Source of the DNA: an uncultured Christensenella sp. | GTDB lineage: Bacteria; Bacillota; Clostridia; Christensenellales; Pumilibacteraceae | NCBI GenBank assembly: GCA_910585055.1 | Contig: CAJUBY010000001.1 | Location: forward strand, 56,255 to 120,254 | Direction: 5' to 3' | Length of the DNA stretch: 64,000 bases | In this document: positions 9,736 to 49,088 of the stretch, piece after piece | Position numbering within the stretch: the first letter of the stretch is position 1 | Layout: the number at the start of each line of letters is the position of its first letter | Program-made: the position numbers and the translations under genes | The notes under the pieces: model-generated | Told to the model about the DNA's origin: nothing | What the model saw: only the letters and a program-made list of their open reading frames with translations | Database searches by the model: none

Positions 9736-9816
9736 CGGTTTTATACGGAATTTGACACGAAAGAAAAGTTTTTTCGTATGCCTTACCGTACAGCTAAACC
9801 GACGGTTTAGTAAATC
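9736..9816 (+). repeat. 81-nt intergenic repeat, copy 2
   Basis: See copy 1. The palindrome lies at 9794-9810, and TTGACA lies at 9752-9757 inside the element. Confidence 0.7.
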
Positions 9817-10019
9817 AAGAATTTTAAGGTTTGAAATCGCGGCATATTTTTGCAGAAATACGGATAGATAGGAGGATTTTATAGATTACAATACAGTATA
9901 TGTATAGTACGGCGAATAAATTTGTAAAGTACGGTACAAACTAAACTTGCATAGACAAAGTTTCCGTTTATAAATAAAATTCGGATTTGTTGTCTAAATC
10001 ATAAAGGGGGAAAGTGGAA

Positions 10020-10184
10020 ATGGCTAACACCAAAAAGACTGCTACGAGCAAAAACAATTCGACGCGTTGCTGCAGCTCTAAAAAGACTGAAAACAACGTA
10101 CGCAATTGCGGTTCGACGACTAAGAACAGCAAGTCGACTACTCGTACGCAAAGCAAAAAGTCCGAAACCGTAAAAGCGAAATAA
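10020..10184 (+). CDS. small basic Lys/Thr/Ser/Asn-rich protein (54 aa, 3 Cys)
   Basis: The ATG lies 8 nt after AAAGGGGGAAAG. Translation: MANTKKTATSKNNSTRCCSSKKTENNVRNCGSTTKNSKSTTRTQSKKSETVKAK. It is not in the ORF track (<60 aa). It is the only well-signalled ORF in the 2.5-kb gene-poor region. Confidence 0.4.
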   Translation: MANTKKTATSKNNSTRCCSSKKTENNVRNCGSTTKNSKSTTRTQSKKSETVKAK

Positions 10185-11564: not shown

Positions 11565-11594
11565 TTGACAAGAGGTGTTGTATTGTATTATAAT
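11565..11594 (+). promoter_or_regulatory. putative str-operon promoter
   Basis: TTGACA (11565-11570), 18-nt spacer, TATAAT (11589-11594), ~110 nt upstream of rpsL. Confidence 0.6.
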
Positions 11595-11703
11595 CAAAGT
11601 TACGCGTGGAATTGCGCGTACGGTAAGTCAATTACCAAATGCTCTTTATTCGGGTCTTACTCGAAGCGGGAGCGGCAATACTACTAAAAGGAGGTAGAGT
11701 AAT

Positions 11704-20280: not shown

Positions 20281-21051
20281 TCAGTCGAAAACGAAAAATC
20301 TCAACAGCGCAAAAACGGTCAACAGAACGAGGACCGTTGCGGCGGTAATTATAAATGCGGTGTTGATCCTCTTTTCGGTTTTTACGTTTCTGTCCGGCTT
20401 TCCGTAAATTTTACGGTTTACCGAATTGATAAGACGGGATATCCGTTTGTACACCAACAGCGTAACGATGACTGCGACAGTACAGCGGAGAAGATTAAAA
20501 GGCAATACCGACACCCACAGATAAAACGTGTAAAAAGTTTCCCGTGTGCAGGAAGGGAACAGCGGCTTCATCATCTGAATGAGCGGAGTCCAATTGCCGC
20601 CGAAAAAAACGCGGACATAGAACGGGACGAGAACTACCCTATTGAATACGAGTGCAACGCATATTAATGAGGCTGAGCCTATCGCCATTGCTGCAAGAGC
20701 GCCCTTAAATGTTCGGTGTTTTTTGTAGATGATCCCTGCGGTCACGGCGAACGCACACGAAGTGACAAGATCGGAAAGTTCTCCGACGAACATGGTGGAC
20801 GTGCCTTTTATAACCAATTTTATAAGGATCTCCACGACGGTGATCGCCGCACCCGATAACGGTCCGAGCGTAAAAGACCCGATCAATATCGGTATATCCG
20901 AAAGCTTGAATTCCAAAAACCCGGGGAACGCAAACGGTATGGAAAAATTCAGTATGTATAAAATTCCGGCGAGCGTCGAAAACATTGCGATAAACGCAAT
21001 ATGTGCGGAACTTATCCCTTTATGTTCCTTTTGTACCGATACGTTGTCCAT
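20281..21051 (-). CDS. ribU: ECF-transporter substrate-specific (S) component, probable riboflavin transporter RibU
   Basis: 256 aa and multi-TM. The S-component-like sequence (FPGFLEFKLSDIPILIGSFTLGPLSGA) directly follows an FMN riboswitch. Confidence 0.7.
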   Translation of the reverse strand: MDNVSVQKEHKGISSAHIAFIAMFSTLAGILYILNFSIPFAFPGFLEFKLSDIPILIGSFTLGPLSGAAITVVEILIKLVIKGTSTMFVGELSDLVTSCAFAVTAGIIYKKHRTFKGALAAMAIGSASLICVALVFNRVVLVPFYVRVFFGGNWTPLIQMMKPLFPSCTRETFYTFYLWVSVLPFNLLRCTVAVIVTLLVYKRISRLINSVNRKIYGKPDRNVKTEKRINTAFIITAATVLVLLTVFALLRFFVFD

Positions 21052-21093: not shown

Positions 21094-21288
21094 TAAAAAC
21101 GCCCCGAAAACTCGGGGCGAAAACAGCGACACAACTCGCGTCCATTCTTTTAACATCCGGACTGTGACCGTCGGTACGGGAATTTCACCCGATCGGGACC
21201 GTTTTCAACGCATACTCGATCTTGCGTTTACGGTCTTAGTAGACTATGACTACCGGTGGGGATTTTCGCCCCGCCCCAAAGAATGACT
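21094..21288 (-). promoter_or_regulatory. FMN riboswitch (RFN element) with terminator expression platform
   Basis: The minus strand reads CAUUCUUUGGGGCGGGGCGAAAAUCCCCACCGGUAGU...GGGUGAAAUUCCCGUACCGACGGUCACAGUCCGGAUGUUAAAAGAAUG. This matches the conserved RFN core and the P1 closure. It is followed by CGCCCCGAGUUUUCGGGGCGUUUUU (21094-21120). Confidence 0.85.
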
Positions 21289-28607: not shown

Positions 28608-28636
28608 TTGACACAGTGTATAAATGGTGATATACT
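28608..28636 (+). promoter_or_regulatory. near-consensus sigma-A promoter of giant LRR gene 1
   Basis: TTGACA (28608-28613), 17-nt spacer, TGaTATACT (-10 at 28631-28636). Confidence 0.65.
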
Positions 28637-28656
28637 TTTTCAAATATATAAAAATC

Positions 28657-28700
28657 GTAACAGACAACGGCGTCGGAAGAGAATATCTCCGCGCCGTTTT
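28657..28700 (+). promoter_or_regulatory. conserved leader hairpin plus U-tract (copy 1 of 3)
   Basis: GTAACAGACAACGGCGTCGGAAGAGAATATCTCCGCGCCGTTTT. Outer stem AACGGCG/CGCCGTT, inner stem GGA(A)GA/TCTCC, then U4. It starts 20 nt after the -10. Confidence 0.65.
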
Positions 28701-28764
28701 ATGTTACAAAATTATTTTATCCGGCGGAAGCCGTTAATGTTCAATCCAAAAAAAGGAGCAAAGG

Positions 28765-30897
28765 TAAGGCGATGGGGATCAAGAAAGAAACGAAGAAGCG
28801 GATATGCGCGGTGGCGGCGCTGGTAGGAAGCGTAAGCGCGGGCGGCGCGCTGGTAGCGTGCGGAAGCGAAGAAAAGCCTGTAGAGAAAGCTGGAGCGGAA
28901 GCGGGAGTGTATTACTTTGACGCGGGCGGAGAAGAGTATACGATGGCGTTGGGGGACGGAAAGCATGTAACGCTGATGATGGGCGCAGAGAAAAAAGAAG
29001 GGACGTACGGGATCAAAGACGGAGAGATCGAGATCAAGTTCGGAAAGGACGACGTAGCGAGAGGCGCGGTAAAGGAAACGGAGATCGCGCTGAAGTACGG
29101 CGGCCTGGATATGCGGTTTTACAAGAAAGTGTACTACGAAGTGAGGTACGACAGCGTAGACGGGAGCGAGATCGGGAGCGTAAGAGTGCTTAACGGGAAG
29201 CACGCGGAAAAGCCGGCGGATCCTGTAAAAGAGAACAGCATGTTTCTGGGGTGGTACGTAGACGAAGAGTATACGATGCCGTATATATTCAGTGCGGAAG
29301 GAGTAAGCGGAGACATAACGCTGTACGCGCAGTGGGCGGAGCTGGTGCCCGGAGCACAGGAGTACGTCGTAAGATTCGACTTAAACTACGAAACAGACGA
29401 GAAGATAGGGAACAAACAAACGATCGGAGGGAAACTGTACGATCTGCCGAAACCCGGAGGAAGAGAAGGGTACGAGTTTAAAGGGTGGTGGATAAGCGCG
29501 TACGAGGACGGGGAGAGACTGACGTCGGAAGTAACGAAAGAGAGCAGGATCGAAGAGAACAGAACGCTGTACGCGGTATGGGAAGAGAAAGGGAACGGGA
29601 ACAGACTTAAGACGCCGCTGGTGAGCACGGAAGGGAAGACGGTACAGTGGAACAGAGTGGAAGGCGCAAGCTCGTATACGGTGGAAGTAGAGAACACCGC
29701 AGGCGAGAAAAGGGTGTACCAAGGACTGACGGCGACGCGGCAGGAATTGGAGCTGACGGAAGCGGGAGACTATAAGATAACGGTAACGGCGGTAAAGAGC
29801 GGAAACAGCGGAGAGAACTCGAGAGGAGGGGAAAGCTGGTACAGATACAAGGCGTTGGCGCGAGTGTCGATGTTCAGCGTGTCGGAAACGAGTTCGCTGG
29901 TATACAACGGGGTAGAGAACGCGGAAAGATATTACATAAAAGTGGAGTGCGGAAACGCGAGTCATAAACACGATAGATACGACAACGGAACGTCTACGTA
30001 TTATAACTTTGCGAACTGCACGATGCAGGAAGGCGGAATCAAGTTCACGGTAACGGCGGAAGCGGAAGGCTGGGCAAGCTCGACGTCGGTAACGTACGTG
30101 TACAACAGGATACTGGACGGAGTAAAAGAAGTAGCGTACGAGAAAGAAACGCAGAGCATAAGATGGGCGAGCGTAAAGAACGCGACGGGATATATCGTGG
30201 AAGTGAACGGAGAAAGAGAAGAGATAACGGGGACGGTATACAGTGTAAAGGGATACGACCCGGGAGAACTGAAGATAAAAGTAACGCCGAAGACGAAGGG
30301 ATATAACAGTCCGAAAGGGACGGAGATAACGGTACGGAAGGAAGAGTTGGCGGCGCCGAAAGGACTGGAACTGACTGGGACGGAATTGAGCTGGGACGCG
30401 GTAAAAGGCGCGGAAGGATATACGGTAAAGATCGGAGAGAAGACGTATGAAACGGATCGGAACGTATACGATATAACGGAAGCGATAGCGGAAGAGCCGA
30501 GTGCAAGCGGCGAATACCGAATAAGCGTAAAGGCGAACGGAGAGAAAGGATCGGAGTACAGCGACGAGATAAGGGTAAGAGCGCAGACGTTGCGCGGAAC
30601 GCTGAAGTACGGCGACGGGAAAGTGCGCTGGGGGAGCGTGATCGGAGCAACGGAGTACCGTGTACGAGTGAACGGCGGAGCGGAGAAGACAATAACCGGC
30701 GGAACGGAGAGCGAAGTAACGCTTACACGACGCGGCATAAACGAGATAGAAGTGATGTACGCGGCGGGAGAGACGGAGAGCGCGTGGGAGAAGCTGGAAG
30801 TGACGGGCTATGCCGTGGAGTTCGACAGCCGCGGCGGCACGGCTGTAGACACCGTTTACCTCGCTACCGGCGACAGACTTGTCTTGCCCTCCGCACC
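28765..30897 (+). repeat. 2,133-bp direct repeat, copy A (RBS-proximal bases plus codons 1-709 of giant gene 1)
   Basis: Identical to 39091-41223 (offset 10,326). The forward translation and all reverse-frame ORFs in the track are identical between copies. Confidence 0.85.
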
Positions 30898-33800
30898 CGA
30901 GCAGATAGGCAGAGTGTTCGACGGTTGGTACGATTCCGTGGGCGGCGCGAGCGGTAACGGATATAAGATCGAAAACGGCGAGCGGTTCGACACAGCCGGA
31001 GATAAAAAACTGTATGCAAGCTGGGATTACATGGAGTACGAGCTTGTTTATGATTACGGTTCCGGCGGACAGGGCGCGGCAGGCAGCAGCGGCAAAGGTA
31101 CCGTTAAGATAGAACATAATTATACGCTGGAGGTCCCGTCGAATTCGGACGGCCGCAAGCTGTTTTTGGGATGGTACAGCACTGCGAGCGGCGCCGGGCT
31201 GCGTTATACCGATCACAACGGCAGAAGCTATTCGCCGTGGGCTTATCCCATGGGCGGTACGGTGTATGCGCGCTGGGCGAACGGATTTGCATTTACGTAT
31301 CTGGAAAACAGCGATTCGTATTCGGTGGTCAGAGGTGACAACCTTATATCATCGGGTTTGAGCGAGATAACCGTTCCGACTTACTACGACGACGGTGTAC
31401 ACGGCAGAAAGAAAGTTACCGTCATAGACGGCTATGCTTTTGATAAATGCAGCAATCTGGTCACGGTAAACATACCCGATTCGATAAAGATAATTGCCGT
31501 TGACAGCTCGGCGTTCGGATCTTGTACCAAACTGCAGAACATAAATATATACAAAACGGAAGGAACTGTAGGCGCGGTCTACAGCTCGTATCGCGGCGCG
31601 CTTATCGAAAACAATGAGCGTACGGGTGCGCGCGAGCTTAAATTCGTACCTATGGGCAAGACGGGAACGTTTACCGTGCCCGGTACCGTGGATACCGTAG
31701 CCGCAGGCGCGTTCTCTAAATCGGCATTGACGGAAGTAATAGTTCCGACCGGAGTGCGTAACGTCCACGCAAGAGCTTTTGCCGATTGCGAAGCGCTCGA
31801 AAAGGTGACGTTTACGCCCGTGCTTGAGGGTGAGATCTCGATAGAAGAGCTTGTGATAAATGCCGAAGCATTTTACAGATGTACGAACCTGACCGAAGTG
31901 GTTTTCCCTGCGAGAATGAAGTCGTTCGATTCCAAAATGTTCTGCTATTGCGACGCTATGCTTAAGGTGGGAATGGAAGAGGGCGCCGCAGCCCAATACA
32001 TGATCGTAAACGATATGTTGGTAACAAAGGATCGTAAGTTGGTATATTTCCCGTCGGCAAAACCCGACTGTATTATAACGGCGGATATAACCGAGATAGG
32101 AGCGTACGCATTTTATAAAGCAAACAAGATAAAGACCGTATCCATTCCTTCGCATGTAACGGCGATTTGGGAAGGAGCGTTTAAGAGTTGTAAAACCCTT
32201 ACTAAAGTAACGTTTAACGGTGGATACGGCGCAAGATCCGTTACGGTCGGTGTTTCCGCATTTACGGAATGTACGGCGCTGTCTGCCGTCGAATATAAAA
32301 ACTCGCCGAAAATAACGGATATAGGCGAAAATGCGTTTTATAAATGTACGGCGCTTACCGGCTTTACGATACCCGATACCGTTATTTCGGTAGGCGATAA
32401 CGCTTTTGCGGATTGTTCCAACTTAAAAGCGATATCGATAGGAGCGGCTGTCGAAACGTTGGGGAACTATGCCTTCAAGAACTGTAAAGGACTGACATCC
32501 GTTACTTTGCCGGCTTCGCTCACTTCGTTGGGAGAATATGCGTTCGGCGGTTGCATCGGATTGAGATCGGTCGCATACCGATCGGAAAACGGCTCGCCGC
32601 TTTCGATAGGCGTTATGGCGTTTTCTTCTTGCTCGGCGCTTACCGAGTTTTACGTTCCGAAGTTTGTTACGGAGCTGGGCGACGGCGTGTTTACGGACAG
32701 CGTCAATCTCGCAAAAGTAACCGTTGCGGACGAAAACAAAAATTATACCGAGTACGACGACATCGTATATAAGCTTGACGATAAAGGCAATTACATAGGT
32801 ATAGTTTATTATCCTTATACCAAGTCGGGCGCGGTGGTCTTGCCCGAATCTATGACGTCGATAGGCGGCGGCGTGTTCGGTGGCAACAAAAACATAACGT
32901 CTGTCAGTATAGGTAAAAACGTGACGTTTGTCGGTGCGGACGCTTTTAAAAACTGCACCAATCTCAGGACGGTCACGTTTGACGAGACGGGGACCGAGCC
33001 GCTGACTGTGGGCAGCGGAATGTTCTGGGGTTGCTCCAAGCTTCATACCGTAAACCTTCCCTCGCGCATGACGGCTGTTCCGGACAGATTTTTGCAGGGA
33101 ACGGCGGTCACGTCGGTCGTGATACCCGATAAAGCTGTGTCGATAGGACAGTATGCTTTTTCGACTTGTACCGGGCTTGTGTCGGTCACTTTCGGCACGC
33201 GCGAGAGCGACGGCGAACGGATCTGCGATCTGACGACGATAAAAGCCAACGCGTTTTATAACTGTAAAAACATTTCCGAGATCTCCATACCTTATTCCGT
33301 AGTCGATATAGGAAACTCGGTTTTCTACGGATGTGCGGCGTTAAAAAAAGTGAGATTCGAAAACGACCCCGTGCCGAGCGACGAACTGCCGCTTACGATG
33401 GGCACGAGTATTTTTTACGGTTGCAGCGAATTGAGCGACATAGTTCTGCCCGAAAGACTAACCGCGATTCCCAATAACGCTTTTACGAGCTGTGTAAATC
33501 TTTCGTCTATAAATTTGCCGGGCAATTTAAAAAACAGGTCCGCCACCGTACTGGCCGTAGGTACAAGCGCGTTTTCGGGCTGCACATCTTTGCAAAACGT
33601 CACATGCACTAAAAACAGCGACTGCGAAAGTCCGTTTTCTATAGGTAAAGGGGCTTTTTCGGGCTGTACGGCGCTTGTCGGCATAGAGCTGCCCAAGCGT
33701 TCCGAACCTGCGGACGCAAGCAAACCTTACTCCGTATTCAATGAGTTGGGCGTAAACTACATAATGCCCAAATTCGATAATTTTGTGCGGTTTGTCGTGG

Positions 33801-36800
33801 AAGACGGCGGAATTTACTCGTCCGACGAGCAGGGAATATTATATTACAACTCGGTCGTAAACGGCGAGATCGTTAAAGATCACGGAACGTTGATCGCCTG
33901 TCCGTACGGAATAAGCGGTACTGTCACCGTACCGGCGACTACTCATACTGTTTATGACTATTCGTTCTCGTATTCCAACATCCGAGAACTAACATTCCAA
34001 GAAGCAAACGGACAGCTTACCGAAGATGAGTTTGCCGCTCTGCCCGATCTTGTCATATCCGAAAACGCATTTTATTACAGTAAACTCGAGAGCGTAAAAT
34101 TCCCGTCACGGCTCAAGTCGTTGGGGAAAAATTCGTTTAGTAACAGTTCGGCGCTTGTCGACATTACGTTCGAAAGCGAAAGCCGTTTGACGGAAATAAA
34201 AGACTCGGCTTTCTATGCTACCGCGATCACCCTGCTACGCATTCCCGAAACAGTTAAGACCGTCGGATCGAGCATAGTCGGCAGAACGCCGATAACCGAG
34301 CTGTGGATACCGAGCGCAGTTGCCGGCAATATGTATACGAGTTTTCTTAATGCCGCGTCGTCGCTTACGTCAATTAATATTTACGGGCACAGCCCCGAAG
34401 AGAACGAGCCGAACGTATTGTTCGGTGATGACGGAAAAACTCTTTTATGGTACGATCCGGGCAATACCCAAACAGAGTATGTGATCCCCGAAGGCGTGGA
34501 GAGTATCGCGACCCGAGCGTTCTACGGTCAGAATCATCTGAAAACCGTGAAGTTTGCGGACAGCTCTTTAAAAACGATAGGCGCTTATGCTTTTTCGGGG
34601 TCGTCCGTAACAACGGTGGATCTACCCGAAGACTGTCAGATGACCGCCGTAGGATCGAGCGCGTTCAACGAATCCAATATCACGTCGATAACTATACCCA
34701 ACAAAGTGACGTCGATTGGCGGCAGCGCCTTTAAAGCGTGTAAAGAATTGACATCGATCGCGTTTACGCCGCAAACGGTAACATCATCGGACGGACAGAT
34801 ATCTTCGAAGTACGTTATCACATCGATAGGTGCAAGCGCTTTCGAGAACTGCGTACAGCTAAACAACGTGGTTTTGCCTGACAGTGTCACGTCTTTGGAA
34901 AATATAGTTTTCGGCGGTTGTTCCGCATTGACCGATATTACGTTCGGAAAAGGTTTAAAAAAGATAGGGAACAAAGTATTCGGTTCTTGCGAATCACTTG
35001 TTTCGATTACGTTGCCCGACAGTGTAACATCGCTCGGAATAAATGTATTCACCGGATGTATAAATCTGGTAAACGTCAAATTACCGAGCAATATCTCTTC
35101 GATAGGCAACACGATGTTCAACGGATGCGTAAAGCTTACCGATGTTACGTTCGGCGACAAGATCACGTCGATGGGCACAAACGTATTCCAAAACTGTACT
35201 TCGCTCCGATCGGTCACGCTGCCCGATAAAATAACCAAGTTGGATAATAGCGTGTTTTCCGGCTGTACGGCTTTGGAAGAAATAACCGTTCCGGACAGCG
35301 TAACGGCGATAGGCGATACGGCGTTTTTAAACTGCACATCGCTTACAGCGGTCACATTCGGCGCGGGAAGCAAATTGGCTACGATCGGGAAAGAGGCTTT
35401 TGCCGGCTGTTCGGTTTTAAGATCGATCGAGATACCCGGGAGTGTGATCCAGATCGGGAAAACGTCATGCAATGTGTTTAAAGATTGCGTCGCTCTGGAA
35501 TCCGTCACTTTCAGACAAGGAACGGTTCCGCTTAAATTCGTCGGAACTACTCCGTTCTCCGGATGTACAAAACTCAAGACCGTTGATCTGGGCGGAAGAT
35601 CGACCGCGTTGCCCGGATCGTGTTTCAAAGACTTGCCCGAACTGACGGATGTGCGCGGACTTGACAACGTTACCGAAATAGGGACTTACGCTTTTCAGAA
35701 CTGTACGGGACTGAGTGCGTTTACCGTACCGTCTTCGGTGACGAAAATAGGCTTGTATGCATTTAATAATTGCAGCGGACTTTTGAGCTTGACGTTTGAA
35801 AATTCGGATACGGCGCTTACCGTTCCGGACGGTACCGCGGTCTCTGGCGTCTTTGTAGGCTGTACGTCGCTGGTATCCGTAAACTTCGGCGGACGCGAGA
35901 TATCCGTAGGAAAATATGCGTTTTATAACTGTGCGGCGCTTGCCGAAATTTTGGATACGGACGGCATTACAAAGCTTGGCGATTATTCCATGAGCGGTTG
36001 CGGTTTTGTATCGGTAAAAGTTCCCGGATCGCTGTCCGTACTGGGCATAAACGTATTCGAAAACTGCAGATCGCTGATTTCGGTCGAGATACCCACAGAC
36101 GCGTTCGACACATTGAGCGCCTGTACGTTTAAAGGCTGCGATCTTCTTGCGGAAGTGAATTTTACGGGCGGCAATACGATGCTTGCGGCGATAGGCGCGT
36201 CGGCTTTCGAAAACTGCATGTCGCTTGCGGCAGTCGATATCCCACAATGCGTAAGCATGCTCGAAGACCGTGCGTTCTATAACTGCGGATTTACCGAGCT
36301 TAAGGTGCCGGTAACGGTTTCCGATTTCGGGAAAGAGGTGTACGGCGGCAACGCGGCGCTCGTCAAGGTCATTGTTTCGACGGACGATCTGGTAACGCTC
36401 GGCGTCGATATGTTTGTTTCGAGTTCGGTGAGGTCGGTCGAGTTTACCGGTTCCGGCGTTATGCTAAAGGGATTATCCGACGGACTGTTCAAGGATTGCG
36501 CAAATCTATCGGATATTGTCATCCCGTCGTGTGTAAATACGATTGGCGCGTATGCGCTGAAAGGAACGGCAATAGAACGGCTTGTGCTGTCGGAGGGATT
36601 GGTTTCGATAGAAAACGGCGCGTTCGAAAACTGTGTTTCGCTTAAGTCCGTGAATATCCCTGCTACGGTGTCGAATATCGGCGACAATCCTTTTAAAGGC
36701 TGTACCGATCTTGCGGAAATATCCGTGGCGCAGGACAATCAACTTTATGTTACCGACGGAAGCGTACTGTACGACGGAACGAGCACAAAACTTATCGGGG

Positions 36801-38629
36801 TTCTGTCGTCCGCTTCGGGCGAGATCGTATTGCCGGAAACAGTCACGACCGTGGCTGCGGAAGCTTTTGCCAGATCGTCCGTTACAAAAGTAATAATGCC
36901 GAGCGGTGTGGTTTCCGTGCTTGCCGGAACTTTCGAAGGCTGCGAAAACCTTACGGAAGTCGTCTTGCCGGAAGGTATCGTAAGTATAGAAGCGCGCGCG
37001 TTTGCCGGCTGTGTCAATTTAAATAACGTTTCTATCCCGTCCACAGTCAAGTATATCGGCGAAAATGCATTCGACGGCTGTACGGCGTTGTCCGATATGC
37101 GATTTGCGACAAGGGTGTCCGACGGGAATGCGGTCAACGATCTGACCGATATACGGGACAGCGCGTTTGCCGGCTGTGCTTCGCTTACTGCGGTGTCTGT
37201 GCCCGACGGAGTCACGGATATCGGGGAGTATGCTTTTAGCGGCTGCGCGGCGCTTGCGACGGTCGGTATTCCGGAAAGCGTGCTTTCGCTCGGAACGGGC
37301 GTGTTTGAAAACTGCGGCGTTTTGACGGCTCTTAATTTTGCGGAAAACAGTAAACTCGACACTTTGGGCGACTTCCCGTTCAGAAACAGCGGACTTACCG
37401 AGATAGTTTTGCCGGCAGGTATATCGACAGTCAACGAAAACATGTTTGCGGGCGCTACGGCAATCAAAAAAGTGACTTTTGCGCCGGGCACCGCGATAAT
37501 CCAAATAAACAATAGCACGAGCAAGACTTCGGCGTTCGGCGACACTGCTTTGGAATCGGTGGATTTTTCGGGACGTTCCGCTAATTTGAGCTATTATGCT
37601 TTCGACGGTTGCGTAAAACTTAAGTCGGTCACGTGGAACAGCGTAAAAACCGTAGAAAAGAATGCGTTTTCGGGCTGTACGGCGCTTACCGATATAAGTT
37701 TGCCTGCATCAGTCAAAACAATTGGCGCTTATGCGTTTGCCGAAACGGGATTGACTTCGCTTACTGTTCCGAATAATGTAAGTCAAATTTCGGAATATGC
37801 GTTTTACAAAACTCCCATATCGGGCAAATTGGTGATACCCGGAAATGTCAAGACAGTACAGCAGCACGCTTTCGACGGCTGTACGAACCTTACGGGCGTC
37901 GAAGTGCAGAGGGGAGTTCAATATTTGTACGGCCCTGCGGAAGCATCCAAGGCAGGATGGGTCTTTGCCGGATGTACTTCCCTCCGCGAGGTGTCGCTGC
38001 CCGACAGTCTTATAAACGGTATACCCGTAGGAACTTTCGAGGGCTGTACGTCATTGGTGTCTGTGGAGATCCCTGCGGTGCCGAGTATTTACGGTCAGGC
38101 ATTCAAAGGCTGTACGAATCTTACCGATGTTACATTCCGCGGTACCGCGACTTTGCTGTATATATACGAAGAATGCTTTATGGACTGCACGTCGCTTTCG
38201 AATATAAACCTGCCCGAAAGATCTTATGTATCGCTGTACGCACGCACGTTTAAAAACTGCACGTCGCTAACCGAGATAGCGCTGCCGTCGGCGGTCGGGT
38301 ATATTTACGCAGGACTGTTCGAGGGCTGTACGTCGCTGGAAAATGTAACGGTAAAAGGACAGATCACGAAAATTTCCGAAAATGCTTTTAAAGACTGTAC
38401 GAAGATCTCGAGTATAGTCATAAAAGGGAAAAAGCTCAACACAGTCGAAACCGATGCGTTTGCAGGCTGGACGTCCGCACAGACGATATACATAACAGAT
38501 AGCGATGGGGCTGTTTCCGCAGATTGGGCGGAAGGCTGGCACGGAAACGCGGCGGTGGTATGGAACGCCGGTCCGGATACGCCGACACCGCCCGAGCAGA
38601 TCGGAAAGGCTGCGTACGAAAATATGTAA
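28772..38629 (+). CDS. giant surface lipoprotein (3,285 aa): lipobox, Listeria-Bacteroides (Flg_new) repeats, FN3-like modules, and on the order of 100 BspA-type (LRR_5) leucine-rich repeats
   Basis: The signal MGIKKETKKRICAVAALVGSVSAGGALVAC carries a lipobox at Cys30. Flg_new-like units read ..FLGWYVDEEY..ITLYAQW. FN3-like units read ..VQWNRVEGASSYTVEV... A long array of ~23-25-aa units follows, such as IPDSVTSIGDNAFADCSNLKAISIG. No LPXTG, SLH or C-terminal TM was seen. Confidence 0.9.
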   Translation: MGIKKETKKRICAVAALVGSVSAGGALVACGSEEKPVEKAGAEAGVYYFDAGGEEYTMALGDGKHVTLMMGAEKKEGTYGIKDGEIEIKFGKDDVARGAVKETEIALKYGGLDMRFYKKVYYEVRYDSVDGSEIGSVRVLNGKHAEKPADPVKENSMFLGWYVDEEYTMPYIFSAEGVSGDITLYAQWAELVPGAQEYVVRFDLNYETDEKIGNKQTIGGKLYDLPKPGGREGYEFKGWWISAYEDGERLTSEVTKESRIEENRTLYAVWEEKGNGNRLKTPLVSTEGKTVQWNRVEGASSYTVEVENTAGEKRVYQGLTATRQELELTEAGDYKITVTAVKSGNSGENSRGGESWYRYKALARVSMFSVSETSSLVYNGVENAERYYIKVECGNASHKHDRYDNGTSTYYNFANCTMQEGGIKFTVTAEAEGWASSTSVTYVYNRILDGVKEVAYEKETQSIRWASVKNATGYIVEVNGEREEITGTVYSVKGYDPGELKIKVTPKTKGYNSPKGTEITVRKEELAAPKGLELTGTELSWDAVKGAEGYTVKIGEKTYETDRNVYDITEAIAEEPSASGEYRISVKANGEKGSEYSDEIRVRAQTLRGTLKYGDGKVRWGSVIGATEYRVRVNGGAEKTITGGTESEVTLTRRGINEIEVMYAAGETESAWEKLEVTGYAVEFDSRGGTAVDTVYLATGDRLVLPSAPEQIGRVFDGWYDSVGGASGNGYKIENGERFDTAGDKKLYASWDYMEYELVYDYGSGGQGAAGSSGKGTVKIEHNYTLEVPSNSDGRKLFLGWYSTASGAGLRYTDHNGRSYSPWAYPMGGTVYARWANGFAFTYLENSDSYSVVRGDNLISSGLSEITVPTYYDDGVHGRKKVTVIDGYAFDKCSNLVTVNIPDSIKIIAVDSSAFGSCTKLQNINIYKTEGTVGAVYSSYRGALIENNERTGARELKFVPMGKTGTFTVPGTVDTVAAGAFSKSALTEVIVPTGVRNVHARAFADCEALEKVTFTPVLEGEISIEELVINAEAFYRCTNLTEVVFPARMKSFDSKMFCYCDAMLKVGMEEGAAAQYMIVNDMLVTKDRKLVYFPSAKPDCIITADITEIGAYAFYKANKIKTVSIPSHVTAIWEGAFKSCKTLTKVTFNGGYGARSVTVGVSAFTECTALSAVEYKNSPKITDIGENAFYKCTALTGFTIPDTVISVGDNAFADCSNLKAISIGAAVETLGNYAFKNCKGLTSVTLPASLTSLGEYAFGGCIGLRSVAYRSENGSPLSIGVMAFSSCSALTEFYVPKFVTELGDGVFTDSVNLAKVTVADENKNYTEYDDIVYKLDDKGNYIGIVYYPYTKSGAVVLPESMTSIGGGVFGGNKNITSVSIGKNVTFVGADAFKNCTNLRTVTFDETGTEPLTVGSGMFWGCSKLHTVNLPSRMTAVPDRFLQGTAVTSVVIPDKAVSIGQYAFSTCTGLVSVTFGTRESDGERICDLTTIKANAFYNCKNISEISIPYSVVDIGNSVFYGCAALKKVRFENDPVPSDELPLTMGTSIFYGCSELSDIVLPERLTAIPNNAFTSCVNLSSINLPGNLKNRSATVLAVGTSAFSGCTSLQNVTCTKNSDCESPFSIGKGAFSGCTALVGIELPKRSEPADASKPYSVFNELGVNYIMPKFDNFVRFVVEDGGIYSSDEQGILYYNSVVNGEIVKDHGTLIACPYGISGTVTVPATTHTVYDYSFSYSNIRELTFQEANGQLTEDEFAALPDLVISENAFYYSKLESVKFPSRLKSLGKNSFSNSSALVDITFESESRLTEIKDSAFYATAITLLRIPETVKTVGSSIVGRTPITELWIPSAVAGNMYTSFLNAASSLTSINIYGHSPEENEPNVLFGDDGKTLLWYDPGNTQTEYVIPEGVESIATRAFYGQNHLKTVKFADSSLKTIGAYAFSGSSVTTVDLPEDCQMTAVGSSAFNESNITSITIPNKVTSIGGSAFKACKELTSIAFTPQTVTSSDGQISSKYVITSIGASAFENCVQLNNVVLPDSVTSLENIVFGGCSALTDITFGKGLKKIGNKVFGSCESLVSITLPDSVTSLGINVFTGCINLVNVKLPSNISSIGNTMFNGCVKLTDVTFGDKITSMGTNVFQNCTSLRSVTLPDKITKLDNSVFSGCTALEEITVPDSVTAIGDTAFLNCTSLTAVTFGAGSKLATIGKEAFAGCSVLRSIEIPGSVIQIGKTSCNVFKDCVALESVTFRQGTVPLKFVGTTPFSGCTKLKTVDLGGRSTALPGSCFKDLPELTDVRGLDNVTEIGTYAFQNCTGLSAFTVPSSVTKIGLYAFNNCSGLLSLTFENSDTALTVPDGTAVSGVFVGCTSLVSVNFGGREISVGKYAFYNCAALAEILDTDGITKLGDYSMSGCGFVSVKVPGSLSVLGINVFENCRSLISVEIPTDAFDTLSACTFKGCDLLAEVNFTGGNTMLAAIGASAFENCMSLAAVDIPQCVSMLEDRAFYNCGFTELKVPVTVSDFGKEVYGGNAALVKVIVSTDDLVTLGVDMFVSSSVRSVEFTGSGVMLKGLSDGLFKDCANLSDIVIPSCVNTIGAYALKGTAIERLVLSEGLVSIENGAFENCVSLKSVNIPATVSNIGDNPFKGCTDLAEISVAQDNQLYVTDGSVLYDGTSTKLIGVLSSASGEIVLPETVTTVAAEAFARSSVTKVIMPSGVVSVLAGTFEGCENLTEVVLPEGIVSIEARAFAGCVNLNNVSIPSTVKYIGENAFDGCTALSDMRFATRVSDGNAVNDLTDIRDSAFAGCASLTAVSVPDGVTDIGEYAFSGCAALATVGIPESVLSLGTGVFENCGVLTALNFAENSKLDTLGDFPFRNSGLTEIVLPAGISTVNENMFAGATAIKKVTFAPGTAIIQINNSTSKTSAFGDTALESVDFSGRSANLSYYAFDGCVKLKSVTWNSVKTVEKNAFSGCTALTDISLPASVKTIGAYAFAETGLTSLTVPNNVSQISEYAFYKTPISGKLVIPGNVKTVQQHAFDGCTNLTGVEVQRGVQYLYGPAEASKAGWVFAGCTSLREVSLPDSLINGIPVGTFEGCTSLVSVEIPAVPSIYGQAFKGCTNLTDVTFRGTATLLYIYEECFMDCTSLSNINLPERSYVSLYARTFKNCTSLTEIALPSAVGYIYAGLFEGCTSLENVTVKGQITKISENAFKDCTKISSIVIKGKKLNTVETDAFAGWTSAQTIYITDSDGAVSADWAEGWHGNAAVVWNAGPDTPTPPEQIGKAAYENM
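31415..38500 (+). repeat. BspA-type LRR array of giant gene 1 (approximate bounds)
   Basis: Periodic xxAFxxCxxLxxVxIPxSVxxIG units run throughout. Confidence 0.7.
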
Positions 38630-38872: not shown

Positions 38873-38901
38873 TTGACAAACATCGCGCGGAATGTTATAA
38901 T
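38873..38901 (+). promoter_or_regulatory. consensus sigma-A promoter of giant LRR gene 2
   Basis: TTGACA (38873-38878), 17-nt spacer, TGtTATAAT (-10 at 38896-38901). Confidence 0.7.
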
Positions 38902-38922: not shown

Positions 38923-38963
38923 GTCAAGACAACGGCGTCGGGAGTGTTTTCCTACGCCGTTTT
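38923..38963 (+). promoter_or_regulatory. conserved leader hairpin plus U-tract (copy 2 of 3)
   Basis: GTCAAGACAACGGCGTCGGGAGTGTTTTCCTACGCCGTTTT. Outer stem AACGGCGT/ACGCCGTT, inner stem GGGA/TTCC, then U4. Confidence 0.65.
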
Positions 38964-39090
38964 ATAATAGACAAGATCAACGGCAAGAAAAACTGTATCG
39001 AGCCGGTATCCGTACCCGAAATGCACAAAAAGCGTAACGGGCACATGTAAAAAACAATAAAATATACAACGACCTCAAAAGGAGCAAAGA

Positions 39091-41223
39091 TAAGGCGATG
39101 GGGATCAAGAAAGAAACGAAGAAGCGGATATGCGCGGTGGCGGCGCTGGTAGGAAGCGTAAGCGCGGGCGGCGCGCTGGTAGCGTGCGGAAGCGAAGAAA
39201 AGCCTGTAGAGAAAGCTGGAGCGGAAGCGGGAGTGTATTACTTTGACGCGGGCGGAGAAGAGTATACGATGGCGTTGGGGGACGGAAAGCATGTAACGCT
39301 GATGATGGGCGCAGAGAAAAAAGAAGGGACGTACGGGATCAAAGACGGAGAGATCGAGATCAAGTTCGGAAAGGACGACGTAGCGAGAGGCGCGGTAAAG
39401 GAAACGGAGATCGCGCTGAAGTACGGCGGCCTGGATATGCGGTTTTACAAGAAAGTGTACTACGAAGTGAGGTACGACAGCGTAGACGGGAGCGAGATCG
39501 GGAGCGTAAGAGTGCTTAACGGGAAGCACGCGGAAAAGCCGGCGGATCCTGTAAAAGAGAACAGCATGTTTCTGGGGTGGTACGTAGACGAAGAGTATAC
39601 GATGCCGTATATATTCAGTGCGGAAGGAGTAAGCGGAGACATAACGCTGTACGCGCAGTGGGCGGAGCTGGTGCCCGGAGCACAGGAGTACGTCGTAAGA
39701 TTCGACTTAAACTACGAAACAGACGAGAAGATAGGGAACAAACAAACGATCGGAGGGAAACTGTACGATCTGCCGAAACCCGGAGGAAGAGAAGGGTACG
39801 AGTTTAAAGGGTGGTGGATAAGCGCGTACGAGGACGGGGAGAGACTGACGTCGGAAGTAACGAAAGAGAGCAGGATCGAAGAGAACAGAACGCTGTACGC
39901 GGTATGGGAAGAGAAAGGGAACGGGAACAGACTTAAGACGCCGCTGGTGAGCACGGAAGGGAAGACGGTACAGTGGAACAGAGTGGAAGGCGCAAGCTCG
40001 TATACGGTGGAAGTAGAGAACACCGCAGGCGAGAAAAGGGTGTACCAAGGACTGACGGCGACGCGGCAGGAATTGGAGCTGACGGAAGCGGGAGACTATA
40101 AGATAACGGTAACGGCGGTAAAGAGCGGAAACAGCGGAGAGAACTCGAGAGGAGGGGAAAGCTGGTACAGATACAAGGCGTTGGCGCGAGTGTCGATGTT
40201 CAGCGTGTCGGAAACGAGTTCGCTGGTATACAACGGGGTAGAGAACGCGGAAAGATATTACATAAAAGTGGAGTGCGGAAACGCGAGTCATAAACACGAT
40301 AGATACGACAACGGAACGTCTACGTATTATAACTTTGCGAACTGCACGATGCAGGAAGGCGGAATCAAGTTCACGGTAACGGCGGAAGCGGAAGGCTGGG
40401 CAAGCTCGACGTCGGTAACGTACGTGTACAACAGGATACTGGACGGAGTAAAAGAAGTAGCGTACGAGAAAGAAACGCAGAGCATAAGATGGGCGAGCGT
40501 AAAGAACGCGACGGGATATATCGTGGAAGTGAACGGAGAAAGAGAAGAGATAACGGGGACGGTATACAGTGTAAAGGGATACGACCCGGGAGAACTGAAG
40601 ATAAAAGTAACGCCGAAGACGAAGGGATATAACAGTCCGAAAGGGACGGAGATAACGGTACGGAAGGAAGAGTTGGCGGCGCCGAAAGGACTGGAACTGA
40701 CTGGGACGGAATTGAGCTGGGACGCGGTAAAAGGCGCGGAAGGATATACGGTAAAGATCGGAGAGAAGACGTATGAAACGGATCGGAACGTATACGATAT
40801 AACGGAAGCGATAGCGGAAGAGCCGAGTGCAAGCGGCGAATACCGAATAAGCGTAAAGGCGAACGGAGAGAAAGGATCGGAGTACAGCGACGAGATAAGG
40901 GTAAGAGCGCAGACGTTGCGCGGAACGCTGAAGTACGGCGACGGGAAAGTGCGCTGGGGGAGCGTGATCGGAGCAACGGAGTACCGTGTACGAGTGAACG
41001 GCGGAGCGGAGAAGACAATAACCGGCGGAACGGAGAGCGAAGTAACGCTTACACGACGCGGCATAAACGAGATAGAAGTGATGTACGCGGCGGGAGAGAC
41101 GGAGAGCGCGTGGGAGAAGCTGGAAGTGACGGGCTATGCCGTGGAGTTCGACAGCCGCGGCGGCACGGCTGTAGACACCGTTTACCTCGCTACCGGCGAC
41201 AGACTTGTCTTGCCCTCCGCACC
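39091..41223 (+). repeat. 2,133-bp direct repeat, copy B
   Basis: See copy A. Confidence 0.85.
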
Positions 41224-44200
41224 GGTATACGTCGGGTATATATTTAACGGTTGGTATAACTCGATAGGCGGTTCCGACGGTAACGGAATGGAAATAACCG
41301 ACGGTGAACTGTTCGATATTGCAAGCGACACGGTTCTTTTTGCCGATTGGAAGAACGGTACGTACGACATAACGCTCGATTACGGCAGCGGTCACGCGTC
41401 ATCTACCGGCAACGGAAAGGGTACCGTACAATATCTCAACGACTATACGCTGGAAGTGCCCGTCCATGACGACGGCAGAATGGTTTTTGTCGGATGGTAC
41501 AGTAACCGTAACGGCTCGGGCGAAAGGTATACCGATCAGGACGGAAAAAGCACCGATAAATGGAAAAACCGTTTCGGTGTCACTATGTATGCGCACTATA
41601 TAGAAGCGTTTAAATTCGTATATCTTCCTAACAGCGATTCGTATTCGGTCGTAAAATCGGATAAGCTTTCCTCGTCGGCTTTGACGCACGTTAAAATACC
41701 GGCGTATTACGACGATGGCGAGCACGGCAGTAAAAAAGTAACGATTGTGGACGGATATGCCTTTAGCGGATGCAGCAAACTGACGGAGATATCCATACCG
41801 GACACCGTAACTACGATAGCAGTAATGTCGTCCGCTTTCAAAGACTGTTCGAAACTCGAAAAAGTAAATGTTTATCACGTTGACGGCGTTATAGAGCCGC
41901 TGTACAGCACGTCCGATTCCGGGTTGCTGATGTATAAGAACGGAACGAGTAATGTCAACGAGTTGGTGTACGTCCCTGCCGCAAAGACGGGAATATTGAC
42001 CATCCCCGATACCGTAAACGCGATATTGGTCGATGTTTTTGCCGGCACGAAACTCGAAACGATCATAATACCGTCGAGTGTGATGCGTATCGACAAAGGC
42101 GCATTCAAATCGTCGACCGAACTTAACGAAATCAGGTTTTTGCCGAAGCTTCCCGGCGACGGAAAATTATCGGAGCTGTCCATAGCCGACGGAGCGTTCG
42201 ATCTGTGTTCCGGTTTGCAAAAAATCACTTTTCCCGCCCGAATGAAGACCTTTAACGCGGCGATTTTCGATTACTGCAAGGCTCTTACAGAGATCGACAT
42301 GGAAATAAGCGACGAAGCGGTATATAAAGCAGTTGACGGTATGCTTGTCAAAGACCGTACTCTGGTATTTTTCCCGACGGGAAAGAAAACGTGCAGGATA
42401 ACTACGGATATAACGGAAATAGGCGAAAGAGCATTTTACGATGCGGACGGACTGACATCCGTCGATATACCCAACTGGATAACTACAATACACAGCAGCG
42501 CTTTTGCGGAATGTTCCGCGCTTATGAGCGTAACGTTCAACGGCGGCGTCGGAGCGAGGAATCTTATAATAGGCGAAAGTGCGTTCGAACACTGCTCGTC
42601 GCTTTCGAGCATAGTGTACAACAACGCGCCGCAGATAACCGGCATGGGTGTAAGAGCTTTTGCAAAATGTACCGGTCTTCGAAGTTTTACCGTGCTTGAT
42701 ACTGTGTCGGAACTGTCGGAAAGCGTTTTTGCCGGATGCTCCAACCTTGCCGAAATAAATCTCGGCAATTCGCTCAAGACCATAGGCAAACAGGCGTTTT
42801 CGGGCTGTAAGGCTTTGACCGAAATTTCTTTCCCGTCGTCGCTGACAGGCGTAAGCGAAAAAGCGTTCGAAGCGTGTTCGGCATTAAAGACCGTTCGGTT
42901 TGCCGACGTATGCGAAAGCCTTACGCTCGGCTCCAATACGTTTGCCGACTGTACGTCTATCAAAACTATATCGTTGCCCGACTATGTTACATCGCTTGGA
43001 AGCGGCGCGTTTTCGGGTTGCTACAATCTTACGATAATAGATATAGACGAAAACAACAAATCTTTCGCGTCGTACGAAAACGTTATATATTCGCTTGACG
43101 CCGACGGCACATATACCGGCATAGTTTTTTATCCGTATACCAAAACGGGCGAAGTCGTATTGCCCGAAAAGATGACCGTTATCGGCGGTGTTTTTAAGAA
43201 TAATACAAGCATAACTAAGGTCACTATTCGCAGTACGGTGACGCAGATAGACGATACAGCGTTTTACGGATGTTCTAATTTGCGCTCGGTTGAGTTTTTA
43301 CCGCCGGAGACCGCAAAGGAAAGAACCGTAGCGGAAGAGCTTACGATAGGCGTCGGAGCTTTTAATAAATGTACGTCGCTCGTCTCGGTGATATTGCCGG
43401 AACGCCTTACGGAAGTGTCGGAGTATATGTTTCAAGGATGCACGTCGCTCGTCAGCGTGTCTATTCCGTCGACCGTTACCAAGATCGGCAGAGACGCGTT
43501 TAACGGCTGTAAGATGTTGACAACGGTAACTTTCGAAAAACGTACGGAAACGGTTGCCGCGGACACCGAACATGGGCGGTCGGAAGTGTCGACTAAACAG
43601 GTATGCGATATCGATTCCATAGGCTATAGGGCGTTTTATAATTGCTCGGCGTTGGCTTCTGTCACAATCCCGTACAGCGTAAGCACGGTATTTGCCGATG
43701 CGTTTTATAATTGTACGGCGTTATCCGAGCTTGTATTCGAAGACGGAGATACTCCGTTGGAAGTATATAACGACACCTCGTTAGATAGCTTTGGTTACAC
43801 TTCCGGTGTGTTTTTCGGTTGTACGGCGCTTACGGAAGTGACTTTGCCGGAAAGATTAAACCGTATTGCCAATAACATGTTTTACGAATGCACGTCGCTT
43901 GTAGGCGTAAATCTGCCCGGCAATATAAAAAATTCAACGTTTACTCAGCGCGCCGAAAAAACCGCGACTATAGATAATAAAGGAGTGGTCACGGACGCGT
44001 CGTCACAGACCAGGAATAATCTGAATCAAAGTTACGGCGGTATGGCGATAGGGCACGGGGCATTCGGCGCATGTTCGGCGCTTAGAACGGTAACCTGCAC
44101 GAAAAACAGTAAAAGCGAAGGCACGGTATCGTTCGGCGACAGACCGTTTAACTCATGTACGTCGCTCGACAGCGTAGAACTTCCGTCGCGGTTCGGTAAA

Positions 44201-47200
44201 AAAAGCGATACGGCTGATGACGAAGTTTGGTACAGCGCTCACGGAGGCAACAGTGATACAAGTTATCCCTTTGCGAATTGTAACAATTTGCAAAACGTTT
44301 ATATTGAAAGGGGAGGGGAATTTGCGTACGATATAGACGGCGTCGTGTATTCGGCAAGCGGTAAAACGCTGTTCTATTGTCCTCTCGGAAGGACTTCGAT
44401 AACTATACCGGACACCGTGGAAACGATCGGTGCCAATGCGTTCAGGAACGGCATTATTTCTGAAGTAAAATTCCAAGAAGAGCAGGACGGATATACCGGC
44501 GATAAAACGACGCTGCCCGATCTGACTGTAGGCGCTTCTGCATTCTATTTCTGTAAGTCGCTGCAATCGATAAAACTTCCTTCTCGGTTAAAAACATTGT
44601 CGGAAAGCGCATTCGGCAGCTGTTCCAACTTGTCGAGCGTTACGTTTGCCGACGATTGCGGTCTTACGGATATAGGAGCTTCGGTTTTCTCGTCTACGGG
44701 AATAACCGCAATCGTTCTGCCTAAAACCGTAACGACGCTGGGCGCTACCGTATTCAGCGGCGTTAAGCTTGCGGAAATAACGTTGCCGGACGGAATTATG
44801 AACAAGTTGATAACGCTCGGTTGCGCTGTCCCCGAAACTATAAAAACGTATTCCGCCGCCGGCGATATAATACTGCTTCCCGGCGAAGAGATAATAGAAG
44901 GGACTAAACTCGTCAAATTCTCGGGCGTGCCCGTAACGGAAGACGGAACTTACACCGTTGCCGCAAATATAACCGAAATATGCGATAACGCGTTCTTTAA
45001 CAATCAAAACGTAAAACACATTCGCTTCGCACAAGGCAGCCAAATAGCGAGCATAGGACAGTACGCATTTGCCAATTGCAAAAATCTTTTGGATATAGAA
45101 TTCCCCGATGATTGCGCTATAACCGATATTTCCGATTATGCGTTCCAAAACTGCACTTCGATTAACGGAATAACGGTGCCCGGTCGCGTAACGAGAGTGG
45201 GCAAGTTTGCTTTCGACGGATGTTCGGATCTCGCTGTGCTCGAGTTCGATCAATATACGCAGACATCGGACGGCGGCGAAACGTCGTCTGTATACAGTAT
45301 CGAACATCTCGACGAAGGCGCGTTCCGCAGTACGGGTCTGAATACGGTAACTTTGCCCGGATCGGTGACCAAACTCGGGCGTATAACAAACGGAGCGACT
45401 ACGACAGTGAACAACGTATTTGCAAATTGCGCGTCGCTTTCGACCGTTACTTTTGCCGCAGGTTCGGAAAAGCTGCTTATTTCCACAAGCACGAGCAGTA
45501 GCGGACACATGTTCGATAAGTGTGCGTCGCTTACGACAATTAACTTTAATAGCAGATTGGATTATCTGCCGCAGGGTATTTTTTATAATTATACGGCGTT
45601 GACTACCGTCACCGGAATTAATAATATAACATCTATAGGTAATTATGCGTTCAGCGGCTGTGTAGCTTTGTCTGAATTCGAAATACCGGTGGGCGTCATT
45701 GCCGTGGGACAGAAGGCATTCTTTAATTGTGCGGGATTAACGAAACTTTCGTTCGCCGAAGGCTCGGACAATACGGTAAAGAGCGCAAATATAACTTATT
45801 CAAACGGCGCGATATCGAAAACCGCGAATATCACTTCTACGAGTAACGCTCCTTTTAACGGTTGCTCAAAACTCGGCGCGATCGATTGCGGCAATAGAAA
45901 GTTCGATTTGAGTACAAGTATAATGTTCGCCAACAGCGGCGTGACCGAGCTGAAAAATATACAATTCGAAAAAACGGTATTGGTAAAAAGCGCGTTCGAA
46001 GGCGCAGCGCTCACGAACGTCGATTTTCTTGACGGTATTACAAAAATCGGTCAAACTGCGTTTAAAAACTGCAAATCGTTGACGGCGGTAACGATACCGG
46101 CTTCGGTAACAACTGTTGATAAAGGAAATACATTTGACGGTTGTTCGGAACTTACGGATGTAACGCTCAATAATGCGGCATATAGCGACAGTATGTTTGC
46201 CAACTGCACAAAGCTTCAAACGGTTAATTTCGCCGCGTGTGCGACGGCTATCCCCAACAGAATGTTCTATAATTGCTCGGAGCTTACCGCCGTTACTTTT
46301 GCAGCTAATGCCGATGCTTCTGCGTCGCTTACCATAACGAACGCGTCGAGCACAACATACAGCCCTTTTTATGAATGCACGTCGCTTGTTTCCGTAAACT
46401 TTAACGGACGCAAAGTAAGCATTGGAAATAACGCGTTTAACGGCTGTACTTCGCTTGCCAACGTAAACGGCATGGAAAACGCGACTAACATCGGGAACAG
46501 TGCGTTTAGCGGCTGTGCGCTTACTTCGGTGACTATCGGTGATTCTGTAACGACGCTCGGGACCGGGGCATTCCAAAACAACACAAAACTTTTATCGGTA
46601 AGCATAACGACCGATAAGTTTACGACGCTCGGTTCGTCGACATTCTACGGCTGTACGAATCTCGCTACCGTAACGTTTACCGGCGACGGAAGCGCGCTCA
46701 CCACTATAGGCGCATGGGCGTTCGGTAAATGTTCGTCGCTCGAAAGTATACGGCTTCCCGACGGCATAACCACTATTTACAACGGTGCGTTTGAAAACTG
46801 CACTTCGCTCACACAGGTCAATTTCCCGAGCAGTCTTGTTACAATAAGCGAAAACGCATTCTACAAATGTGCTATGACAAGCGTGGATTTACCGGCGTCG
46901 GTAAGCGAGATAGGCGACAGCGCGTTCGCGTACAATTCGGCGCTTTTGAGTGTGTCGGTATCGACAGACAGTTTCCCGAGGTTGGGAGCGTATATGTTCT
47001 CCAATTGCGTAAATCTCGCAACTGTGGAATTTAAAGGCGAAGGCATAGTGCTCGAAGAGTTCGGCGAAGGCGCGTTTTATAAGTGCGGAGCGCTTAGATC
47101 GATAACGTTGCCGAAAAACATCAAGTTCATAGGCAGCAACGCATTTGCTAATACGGGCTTGAGCGAGATATCATTGCACGAAGGCGTATTGAGCGTAGGC

Positions 47201-49058: not shown

Positions 49059-49088
49059 TTGACAATGCATATAATATAGTGGTATAAT
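49059..49088 (+). promoter_or_regulatory. consensus sigma-A promoter of the MoxR/VWA/LRR operon
   Basis: TTGACA (49059-49064), 18-nt spacer, TGgTATAAT (-10 at 49083-49088). Confidence 0.65.

Follow-up and report, generated by a model that had tools for sequence, protein, structure and literature searches.

What acts on the short sequence box that lies just downstream of three strong promoters in this DNA, each time as part of a terminator-like hairpin ahead of a gene? The whole stretch of DNA analysed (the window) is 64 kb long and is chromosomal; mnmE, gidB, parB, dnaB and the S12-S7-EF-G-EF-Tu genes are present in it. The initial annotation described three near-consensus extended -10 promoters followed by a shared box and hairpin, and proposed an attenuator that is read through with the help of a dedicated antiterminator. 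Our promoter scan returned these three promoters as the top-ranked promoter-like sites in the scanned regions, all of them with the TG of the extended -10, as follows:

28608-28636, + strand: site 1 promoter, TTGACA-17-TGaTATACT, extended -10, scan score 11/12
38873-38901, + strand: site 2 promoter, TTGACA-17-TGtTATAAT, extended -10, scan score 12/12
49059-49088, + strand: site 3 promoter, TTGACA-18-TGgTATAAT, extended -10, scan score 12/12

The 64 kb contain exactly three copies of the 14-mer GACAACGGCGTCGG, at 28663, 38928 and 49113 and always on the + strand (the chance expectation for this exact 14-mer in the window is ~5e-4), and the box starts 24-26 nt past the -10 element at all three sites. 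A copy with one mismatch (GACAACGCCGTCGG) is present on the - strand at 53558-53571, within the BatA/VWA gene and 4.4 kb downstream of site 3; we judge it to be a chance occurrence in G+C-rich coding sequence. At each of the three sites the box runs into a predicted intrinsic terminator:

28666-28705, + strand: site 1 predicted terminator, AACGGCG-U-CGGA(A)GA, loop GAAUA, UCUCCG-CGCCGUU, then UUUUAUGUU; core fold -18.6 kcal/mol, z -7.6 with flanks
38931-38968, + strand: site 2 predicted terminator, AACGGCGU-C-GGGAG, loop UGUU, UUCCU-ACGCCGUU, then UUUUAUAAU; fold -17.9 kcal/mol
49116-49156, + strand: site 3 predicted terminator, AACGGCGU-C-GGGAA, loop UCUUU, UUCCC-UU-GCGCCGUU, then UUUUUUAUU; fold -19.6 kcal/mol

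The three copies have a common fold in which AACGGCG(U) pairs with (R)CGCCGUU, an inner helix of variable sequence is paired in every copy, as had been noticed initially, and a U-tract follows. Their core folding energies are -18 to -20 kcal/mol, their z-scores against shuffles with the flanks included are -7.6, -3.2 and -3.3 (sites 1, 2 and 3, respectively), and each stable hairpin has a U4-U6 tract within the 9 nt after it, which is the arrangement of an intrinsic terminator. A simple terminator scanner flagged none of the three hairpins; it seeks a simple stem-loop-stem and these folds are interrupted by bulges. The distance from hairpin to ribosome binding site, which had been given as 70-135 nt, needs correction: from the end of the U-tract to the Shine-Dalgarno sequence it is 55, 118 and 112 nt at sites 1, 2 and 3. 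Additional pairings were considered and rejected. An outer helix can be drawn around each terminator (GUAACA/UGUUAC, UUGUC/GACAA and UUCCG/CGGAA), but for the window copies a shuffled 3' flank matches or exceeds its length in 56-86% of trials, and an alternative antiterminator hairpin, CCGU[AACAGACA]ACGG, can form only at sites 1 and 3, is not conserved and was dropped.

The transcription units that begin at these promoters, each of which is separated from the preceding gene by its own terminator, are the following:

28772-38629, + strand: target gene 1, a 3285-aa BspA-type LRR / Listeria-Bacteroides-repeat surface protein (Pfam LRR_5, Flg_new)
39098-48940, + strand: target gene 2, a 3280-aa BspA-type LRR paralogue of gene 1 (Pfam)
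49273-59870, + strand: target operon 3, encoding a 336-aa Flg_new_2 protein, a MoxR AAA_3 ATPase, a DUF58 protein, a BatA/VWA protein, a VWA protein and a 925-aa BspA LRR protein (Pfam; synteny kept in related metagenome-assembled genomes)

Is the resemblance among the three leaders simply a by-product of gene duplication? The hairpin segments are 74-85% identical between copies, whereas the sequence outside the box and hairpin is alignable at only about 40-65%, near the level of unrelated sequences, so the conservation is local and does not derive from duplication of the genes. Site 3 was identical in ten contigs from other samples, which are therefore uninformative on polymorphism within the species. 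The two BspA-type paralogues themselves are 100% identical over the first ~2.1 kb of their coding sequences (28772-30870 versus 39098-41200) and about 55% alignable thereafter, and their promoters and leaders differ. This pattern points to gene conversion in the 5' region or its recent partial duplication.

Where else does the box occur? The pattern used for the genome scan was loose, and its matches were first taken for noise from proteobacterial terminators, but the genes downstream of them showed otherwise. Among the matches listed, dozens of Beta- and Gammaproteobacteria and Nitrospira have the identical 12-mer GACAACGGCGUC, overlapped by a terminator, at 15-80 nt before nitrate-assimilation genes, with host groups that include Burkholderiales, Xanthomonadales, Hydrogenophilales and Nitrospira; by Pfam, the downstream genes are nirB, an MFS narK-like transporter, cobA and an NMT1_2 nrtA-like binding protein. 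An upstream ANNGNN hexaloop hairpin is present in 22 of 40 such leaders among the matches listed, and in about one third of the 40 the loop of the upstream hairpin is AA[C/U/G]GGC, for example GGCC[AACGGC]GGCC. One nitrate leader (L103) has on its own strand, about 1.2 kb upstream, an ANTAR-domain gene (PF03861). Nitrate assimilation is what the ANTAR antiterminators NasR and NasT classically control, and nitrate loci of this kind are listed as ANTAR substrates in Table S2 of Ramesh et al. The nitrate-assimilation leaders with the same box gave no Rfam match.

The box was also found in other Firmicutes. Homologues of the 336-aa protein have a best identity of 48%, and the order giant BspA-LRR, 330-390-aa Flg_new_2 protein, MoxR, DUF58, BatA, VWA and a ~900-aa unannotated protein is kept in at least nine lineages at 36-48% identity (L135-L147, L151 and L152), so that from sequence the BspA-type proteins and the Bat/MoxR system look like a functional module. 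In three of these relatives, with protein identities of 36-44%, the box and hairpin occupy one or the other of the syntenic positions, always directly after a TTGACA-17-TATAAT promoter:

L139, upstream of BspA: box GACAAAGGCGUC, hairpin AGACAAAGGCGUC...GAUGCCUUUUUU
L146, upstream of the MoxR operon: box GACAAGGGCGUC, hairpin UGACAAGGGCGUC...GGUGCCCUUUUU
L152, upstream of the MoxR operon: box GACAAAGGCGUC, hairpin CGACAAAGGCGUCG...GGUGCCUUUU

The box is absent at the syntenic positions in 6 of about 10 related lineages. Two of the lineages that lack the box have some other structure about 25 nt past the BspA promoter, namely a different terminator-like hairpin with a U-tract in L137 (~1730-1790) and an AU-rich stem-loop with no U-tract in L141 (~860-900), which suggests that leader hairpins are general to these BspA genes. 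Farther afield, a Selenomonadales genome and two metagenome contigs carry GACAACGGCGUCGG...CGCCGUUUU 8 nt past a -10 element and before a gene for a PPDK_N-domain protein, and the inner helices differ among these three. A scan of metagenomes with a strict pattern gave only the Selenomonadales variants and chance matches, and a scan of viral contigs gave two matches, both inside high-GC coding sequence and both rejected as chance. In a Lachnospiraceae locus (L104, 1664-1705, - strand) GACAACGGCGUC and a terminator, with no P1 hairpin (below), lie between glnN, which encodes a type III glutamine synthetase, and an amtB-PII fusion in a nitrogen cluster with the order gltB-gltD-glnN-amtB; from this placement, an element of the AANGGC type therefore also serves nitrogen loci of Firmicutes. 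The spacing from the -10 element to the box ranges from 8 to 29 nt, with 8-13 nt in L152 and Selenomonadales.

How does the box compare with the published definitions of an ANTAR target? The dual-hairpin ANTAR motif has hexaloops in which position 1 is A and position 4 is G, on stems of at least 3 bp, and its 13-nt EutV consensus, AGCAANGRRGCUY, overlaps the 5' part of terminators (PMC3369931); the Geobacter GnfR site, CAGGCAANGGCGCC, overlaps leader terminators as well (PMC2995071). An upstream hairpin, P1, and a constrained linker were found to be necessary for antitermination by EutV (PMC3369931, PMC8934654), and Walshe et al. redefined the minimal ANTAR target as a single hexaloop and anticipated single-hexaloop targets (PMC8934654). 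The initial annotation had not noticed that the box in the window can itself fold into a small hexaloop hairpin, in competition with the terminator. From its identity with the nitrate leaders and the published ANTAR form, the box therefore reads as a GAC[AANGGC]GUC hexaloop hairpin, which in the window has these positions:

28663-28674, + strand: site 1 putative ANTAR P2 mini-hairpin, GAC[AACGGC]GUC, 3-bp stem, hexaloop with A1/G4, the same as P2 of the nitrate-assimilation leaders
38928-38939, + strand: site 2 putative mini-hairpin, GAC[AACGGC]GUC (sequence and hexaloop-hairpin check)
49113-49124, + strand: site 3 putative mini-hairpin, GAC[AACGGC]GUC (sequence and hexaloop-hairpin check)

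The loop has A1 and G4 throughout, being AACGGC in the three window copies and Selenomonadales, AAAGGC in L139 and L152 and AAGGGC in L146; GAC/GUC supplies a stem of the required length (at least 3 bp) with a C-G closing pair; and in every MFE fold the loop (A4-C9) and the following stem segment (G10-C12) are paired with the 3' arm of the terminator, after which comes the U-tract. The P1 hairpin is missing: in none of the nine Firmicutes-type instances does the stretch from the -10 element to the box contain an ANNGNN hairpin with 3 bp or more. The lone P1-like match, at site 3, sits inside the -10 element, and the background rate of P1-like hairpins is 6% per 25 nt. In the L152 and Selenomonadales leaders there is no room for a P1, because the box starts 8-13 nt past the -10.

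A covariance model, as the initial annotation had advised, was built from nine instances and recovered 15 among the loci collected. The sole variable position of the box among the instances is N in GACAA-N-GGCGUC, and its partner in the terminator changes with it (C-G, A-U and G-C). Otherwise the sequence of the 5' arm never changes, whereas changes in the 3' arm pass through wobble pairs (G-C to G-U, U-A to U-G), as expected if the 5' arm is also read in a sequence-specific manner. In the 15-instance alignment the terminator is 90% paired, five pairs have double-sided changes and 0 of 500 shuffles reached the observed covariation score, figures that lean toward structure because the alignment was fitted to the model. 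The GAC/GUC stem of the mini-hairpin is invariant in all instances and its three pairs never vary, so covariation is silent, for or against, on this 3-bp hairpin. A fourth pair of the mini-hairpin is A-U, U-A or C-G in L139, L146 and L152 and is absent in the window copies.

From these comparisons we consider it probable that each of the three sites is an ANTAR-type transcription attenuator, and that the element belongs mechanistically within the known ANTAR class with a nitrogen-type AANGGC loop. Since the AANGGC loop is that of the NasT-type leaders and of the GnfR sites, the regulator would most likely be of the nitrogen-control specificity class. What differs from the classical motif is the absence of P1, the position of the box very near the transcription start, and the new targets, giant BspA LRR proteins and a MoxR/DUF58/BatA/VWA operon. 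The initial annotation did not recognise the element as a known riboswitch, T-box, RAT or PyrR site, and Rfam gave no match to it in the window at the gathering threshold and none overlapping the sites at E up to 10 over 28400-49400; the box nevertheless fits the published ANTAR motif (PMC3369931, PMC2995071, PMC8934654). The annotation's general idea of an attenuator with an antiterminator is backed by the anatomy and the comparative data, while the kind of antiterminator has a precedent in ANTAR proteins. There is also evidence against the ANTAR reading: no ANTAR-domain (PF03861) gene was found in the 64-kb window and 10 kb on each side of it (~84 kb examined), and none was found in the 8-21 kb loci of relatives; the box is missing from the majority of related lineages mentioned above; and we know of no link between the target genes and nitrogen metabolism or any ANTAR regulon.

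The mechanism we propose is as follows. The strong sigma-70 promoter would fire constitutively, and about 20 nt into the transcript the RNA would have two mutually exclusive folds available to it. By default AACGGCG(U) would pair with (R)CGCCGUU, the inner helix would stack on this pairing, and the U-tract would bring about termination at about +60. If an activated ANTAR protein were to capture the nascent GAC[AANGGC]GUC mini-hairpin through its A1/G4 hexaloop and C-G closing pair, the 5' arm of the terminator would be withheld and transcription could continue into the BspA-type genes of 10 kb each and the MoxR/DUF58/BatA/VWA operon. We infer accordingly that an ANTAR protein is present in the organism and binds these leaders, and that termination and read-through do take place at them.

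Among the known systems, the leaders controlled by NasT and NasR (P. putida NalA, K. oxytoca nasF) are regulated by ANTAR proteins and have the same 12-mer P2, GACAACGGCGUC; in them too the terminator's 5' arm consists of the P2 loop and 3' stem, in an identical register. Many of them have, upstream, a P1 whose loop is likewise AANGGC, and sigma-54 promoters occur in some, whereas the window sites have no P1, a sigma-70 extended -10 promoter, a Firmicute host and surface-protein targets. Five nirB leaders from Hydrogenophilales and Thiobacillus (L021, L034, L067, L085 and L123) have a sigma-54-like TGGCAC-N5-TTGCT promoter, then a first hairpin, AGGC[UUCCUC]GCCU, without A1/G4, and then a canonical GGAC[AACGGC]GUCC P2; as nitrate-assimilation leaders they are typical except for this non-canonical P1. 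The REC-ANTAR system GnfK/GnfR of Geobacter sulfurreducens, whose sites lie in the nifH, nifEN, glnK and amtB leaders, has the same AANGGC hexaloop, C-G closing pair and overlap with a promoter-proximal terminator (PMC2995071), but its stem is GGC/GCC (GAC/GUC in the window), its promoters are RpoN-dependent and its regulon is nitrogen fixation. EutV of Enterococcus faecalis (eut) shares the 3-bp stem, the AANG.. hexaloop, the C-G closing pair, the placement of P2 within the terminator stem and the exclusive folds (PMC3369931, PMC8934654); it differs in that its loop ends in RR (GC in the window), it requires P1 and a 5-12 nt linker, and its regulon is ethanolamine utilisation.

Could something other than an ANTAR protein read the box, or does anything read it at all? 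A non-ANTAR RNA-binding antiterminator or a small RNA might bind the single-stranded 5' arm, GACAANGGCGUC, and block the terminator, in keeping with an invariant 5' arm opposite a drifting 3' arm, with the absence of P1 and of any ANTAR gene nearby, and with targets outside the known ANTAR regulons. We think this rather unlikely, as the nitrate-assimilation leaders have the identical box as their P2 and one of them lies next to an ANTAR gene, the way the box varies is exactly that of the ANTAR consensus, with N free and the closing pair C-G, and a second family with equal specificity is less parsimonious. Also unlikely is an unregulated leader hairpin that requires no trans factor and might damp very strong promoters as a leaky terminator or stabilise the long mRNAs as a 5' stem-loop: such a hairpin would not keep 12 identical nt in its 5' arm across lineages of 36-48% identity, or across phyla, while every other stem position changes, even though the location near the 5' end, the near-consensus promoters and the different leader hairpins at the same place in L137 and L141 all agree with it. 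The sites might instead be independent sRNA genes, each with a promoter, a ~60-nt transcript and a terminator, for example decoys of a regulator, with read-through only incidental. The strong promoter and terminator would indeed yield a transcript of 55-65 nt, and ANTAR decoy RNAs have a precedent in EutX/Rli55 (PMC8934654), but the element is always oriented toward a close downstream gene with no second promoter evident, and it would be a poor decoy because its hexaloop is buried in the terminated fold; we regard this explanation as very unlikely.

The other candidates put forward in the initial annotation, a processive NusG/LoaP-like factor and a DNA operator or roadblock, fare worse. A NusG paralogue (LoaP, RfaH or UpxY-like) loaded at the box could carry polymerase past later terminators of the 10-kb genes, and the very long units with a conserved leader element and leader terminator recall the dfn and mln polyketide operons, in which likewise an intrinsic terminator in the leader precedes unusually long units and is overridden by a dedicated factor. 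LoaP, however, is a processive NusG paralogue that antagonises NusA and requires a separate UNCG-tetraloop hairpin, which it binds, upstream of the terminator (PMC12691694), and the window leaders have no such separate hairpin and no UNCG loop. The RfaH ops element GGCGGTAGNNTG has no match at up to one mismatch in the three leaders, neither a NusG/KOW protein nor the co-occurring NusG-paralogue gene that had been suggested was seen among the window ORFs scanned, and the same box stands before short genes such as amtB and cobA, all of which makes processive antitermination highly improbable. Recognition of GACAANGGCGTC, downstream of the transcription start, by a DNA-binding protein appears to us similarly improbable. 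The box does contain a partial palindrome, GAC-N6-GTC, and its position, +2 to +35, is one from which a repressor can work, yet an operator leaves the obligatory terminator hairpin, the compensation opposite N and the wobble drift of the 3' arm unexplained, and the distance from -10 to box varies between 8 and 29 nt.

If the ANTAR reading is right, do these leaders form a class of their own? We put forward, tentatively and as a possibility that may well fail, that uncultured gut Clostridia have a distinct class of P1-less, single-hexaloop ANTAR attenuators placed 2-25 nt from the transcription start, and that giant BspA-type LRR proteins and a MoxR/DUF58/BatA/VWA operon are in this way under a regulator of the "nitrogen-type" AANGGC specificity. 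The ANTAR regulons described so far concern amides, nitrate, ethanolamine, nitrogen fixation and mycobacterial lipid genes. A P1-less class, if real, would tie adhesion and the cell surface to the signal of an ANTAR protein, possibly nitrogen status, and would mean that ANTAR antitermination can work co-transcriptionally with no recruitment hairpin. Confirmation would bring into the ANTAR regulons, from uncultured gut Clostridia, surface proteins that are very large and adhesin-like as well as a Bat/MoxR-VWA system, would provide natural single-hexaloop ANTAR attenuators, which the structural work on EutV predicted but left undemonstrated, and would mean that such regulons can be mapped in metagenomes by searching for a short signature, C[AANGGC]G inside the 5' arm of a terminator.

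Other features of the window lie outside the three leaders. An AT-rich region of ~2.5 kb at 9136-11700, flanked by a PLD-domain gene and rpsL, contains no ORF above 76 aa and gave no Rfam match at the gathering threshold. Two copies of a 90-nt direct repeat (9449-9538 and 9735-9824), 80% identical to each other, lie in it, as does a small basic ORF at ~10021-10185, and the region may consist of small-RNA genes or decayed sequence. An FMN riboswitch (RF00050, 89 bits) is present at 21141-21287 on the - strand, upstream of a gene for an ECF-transporter S component (20281-21051, - strand) that is presumably a riboflavin transporter.
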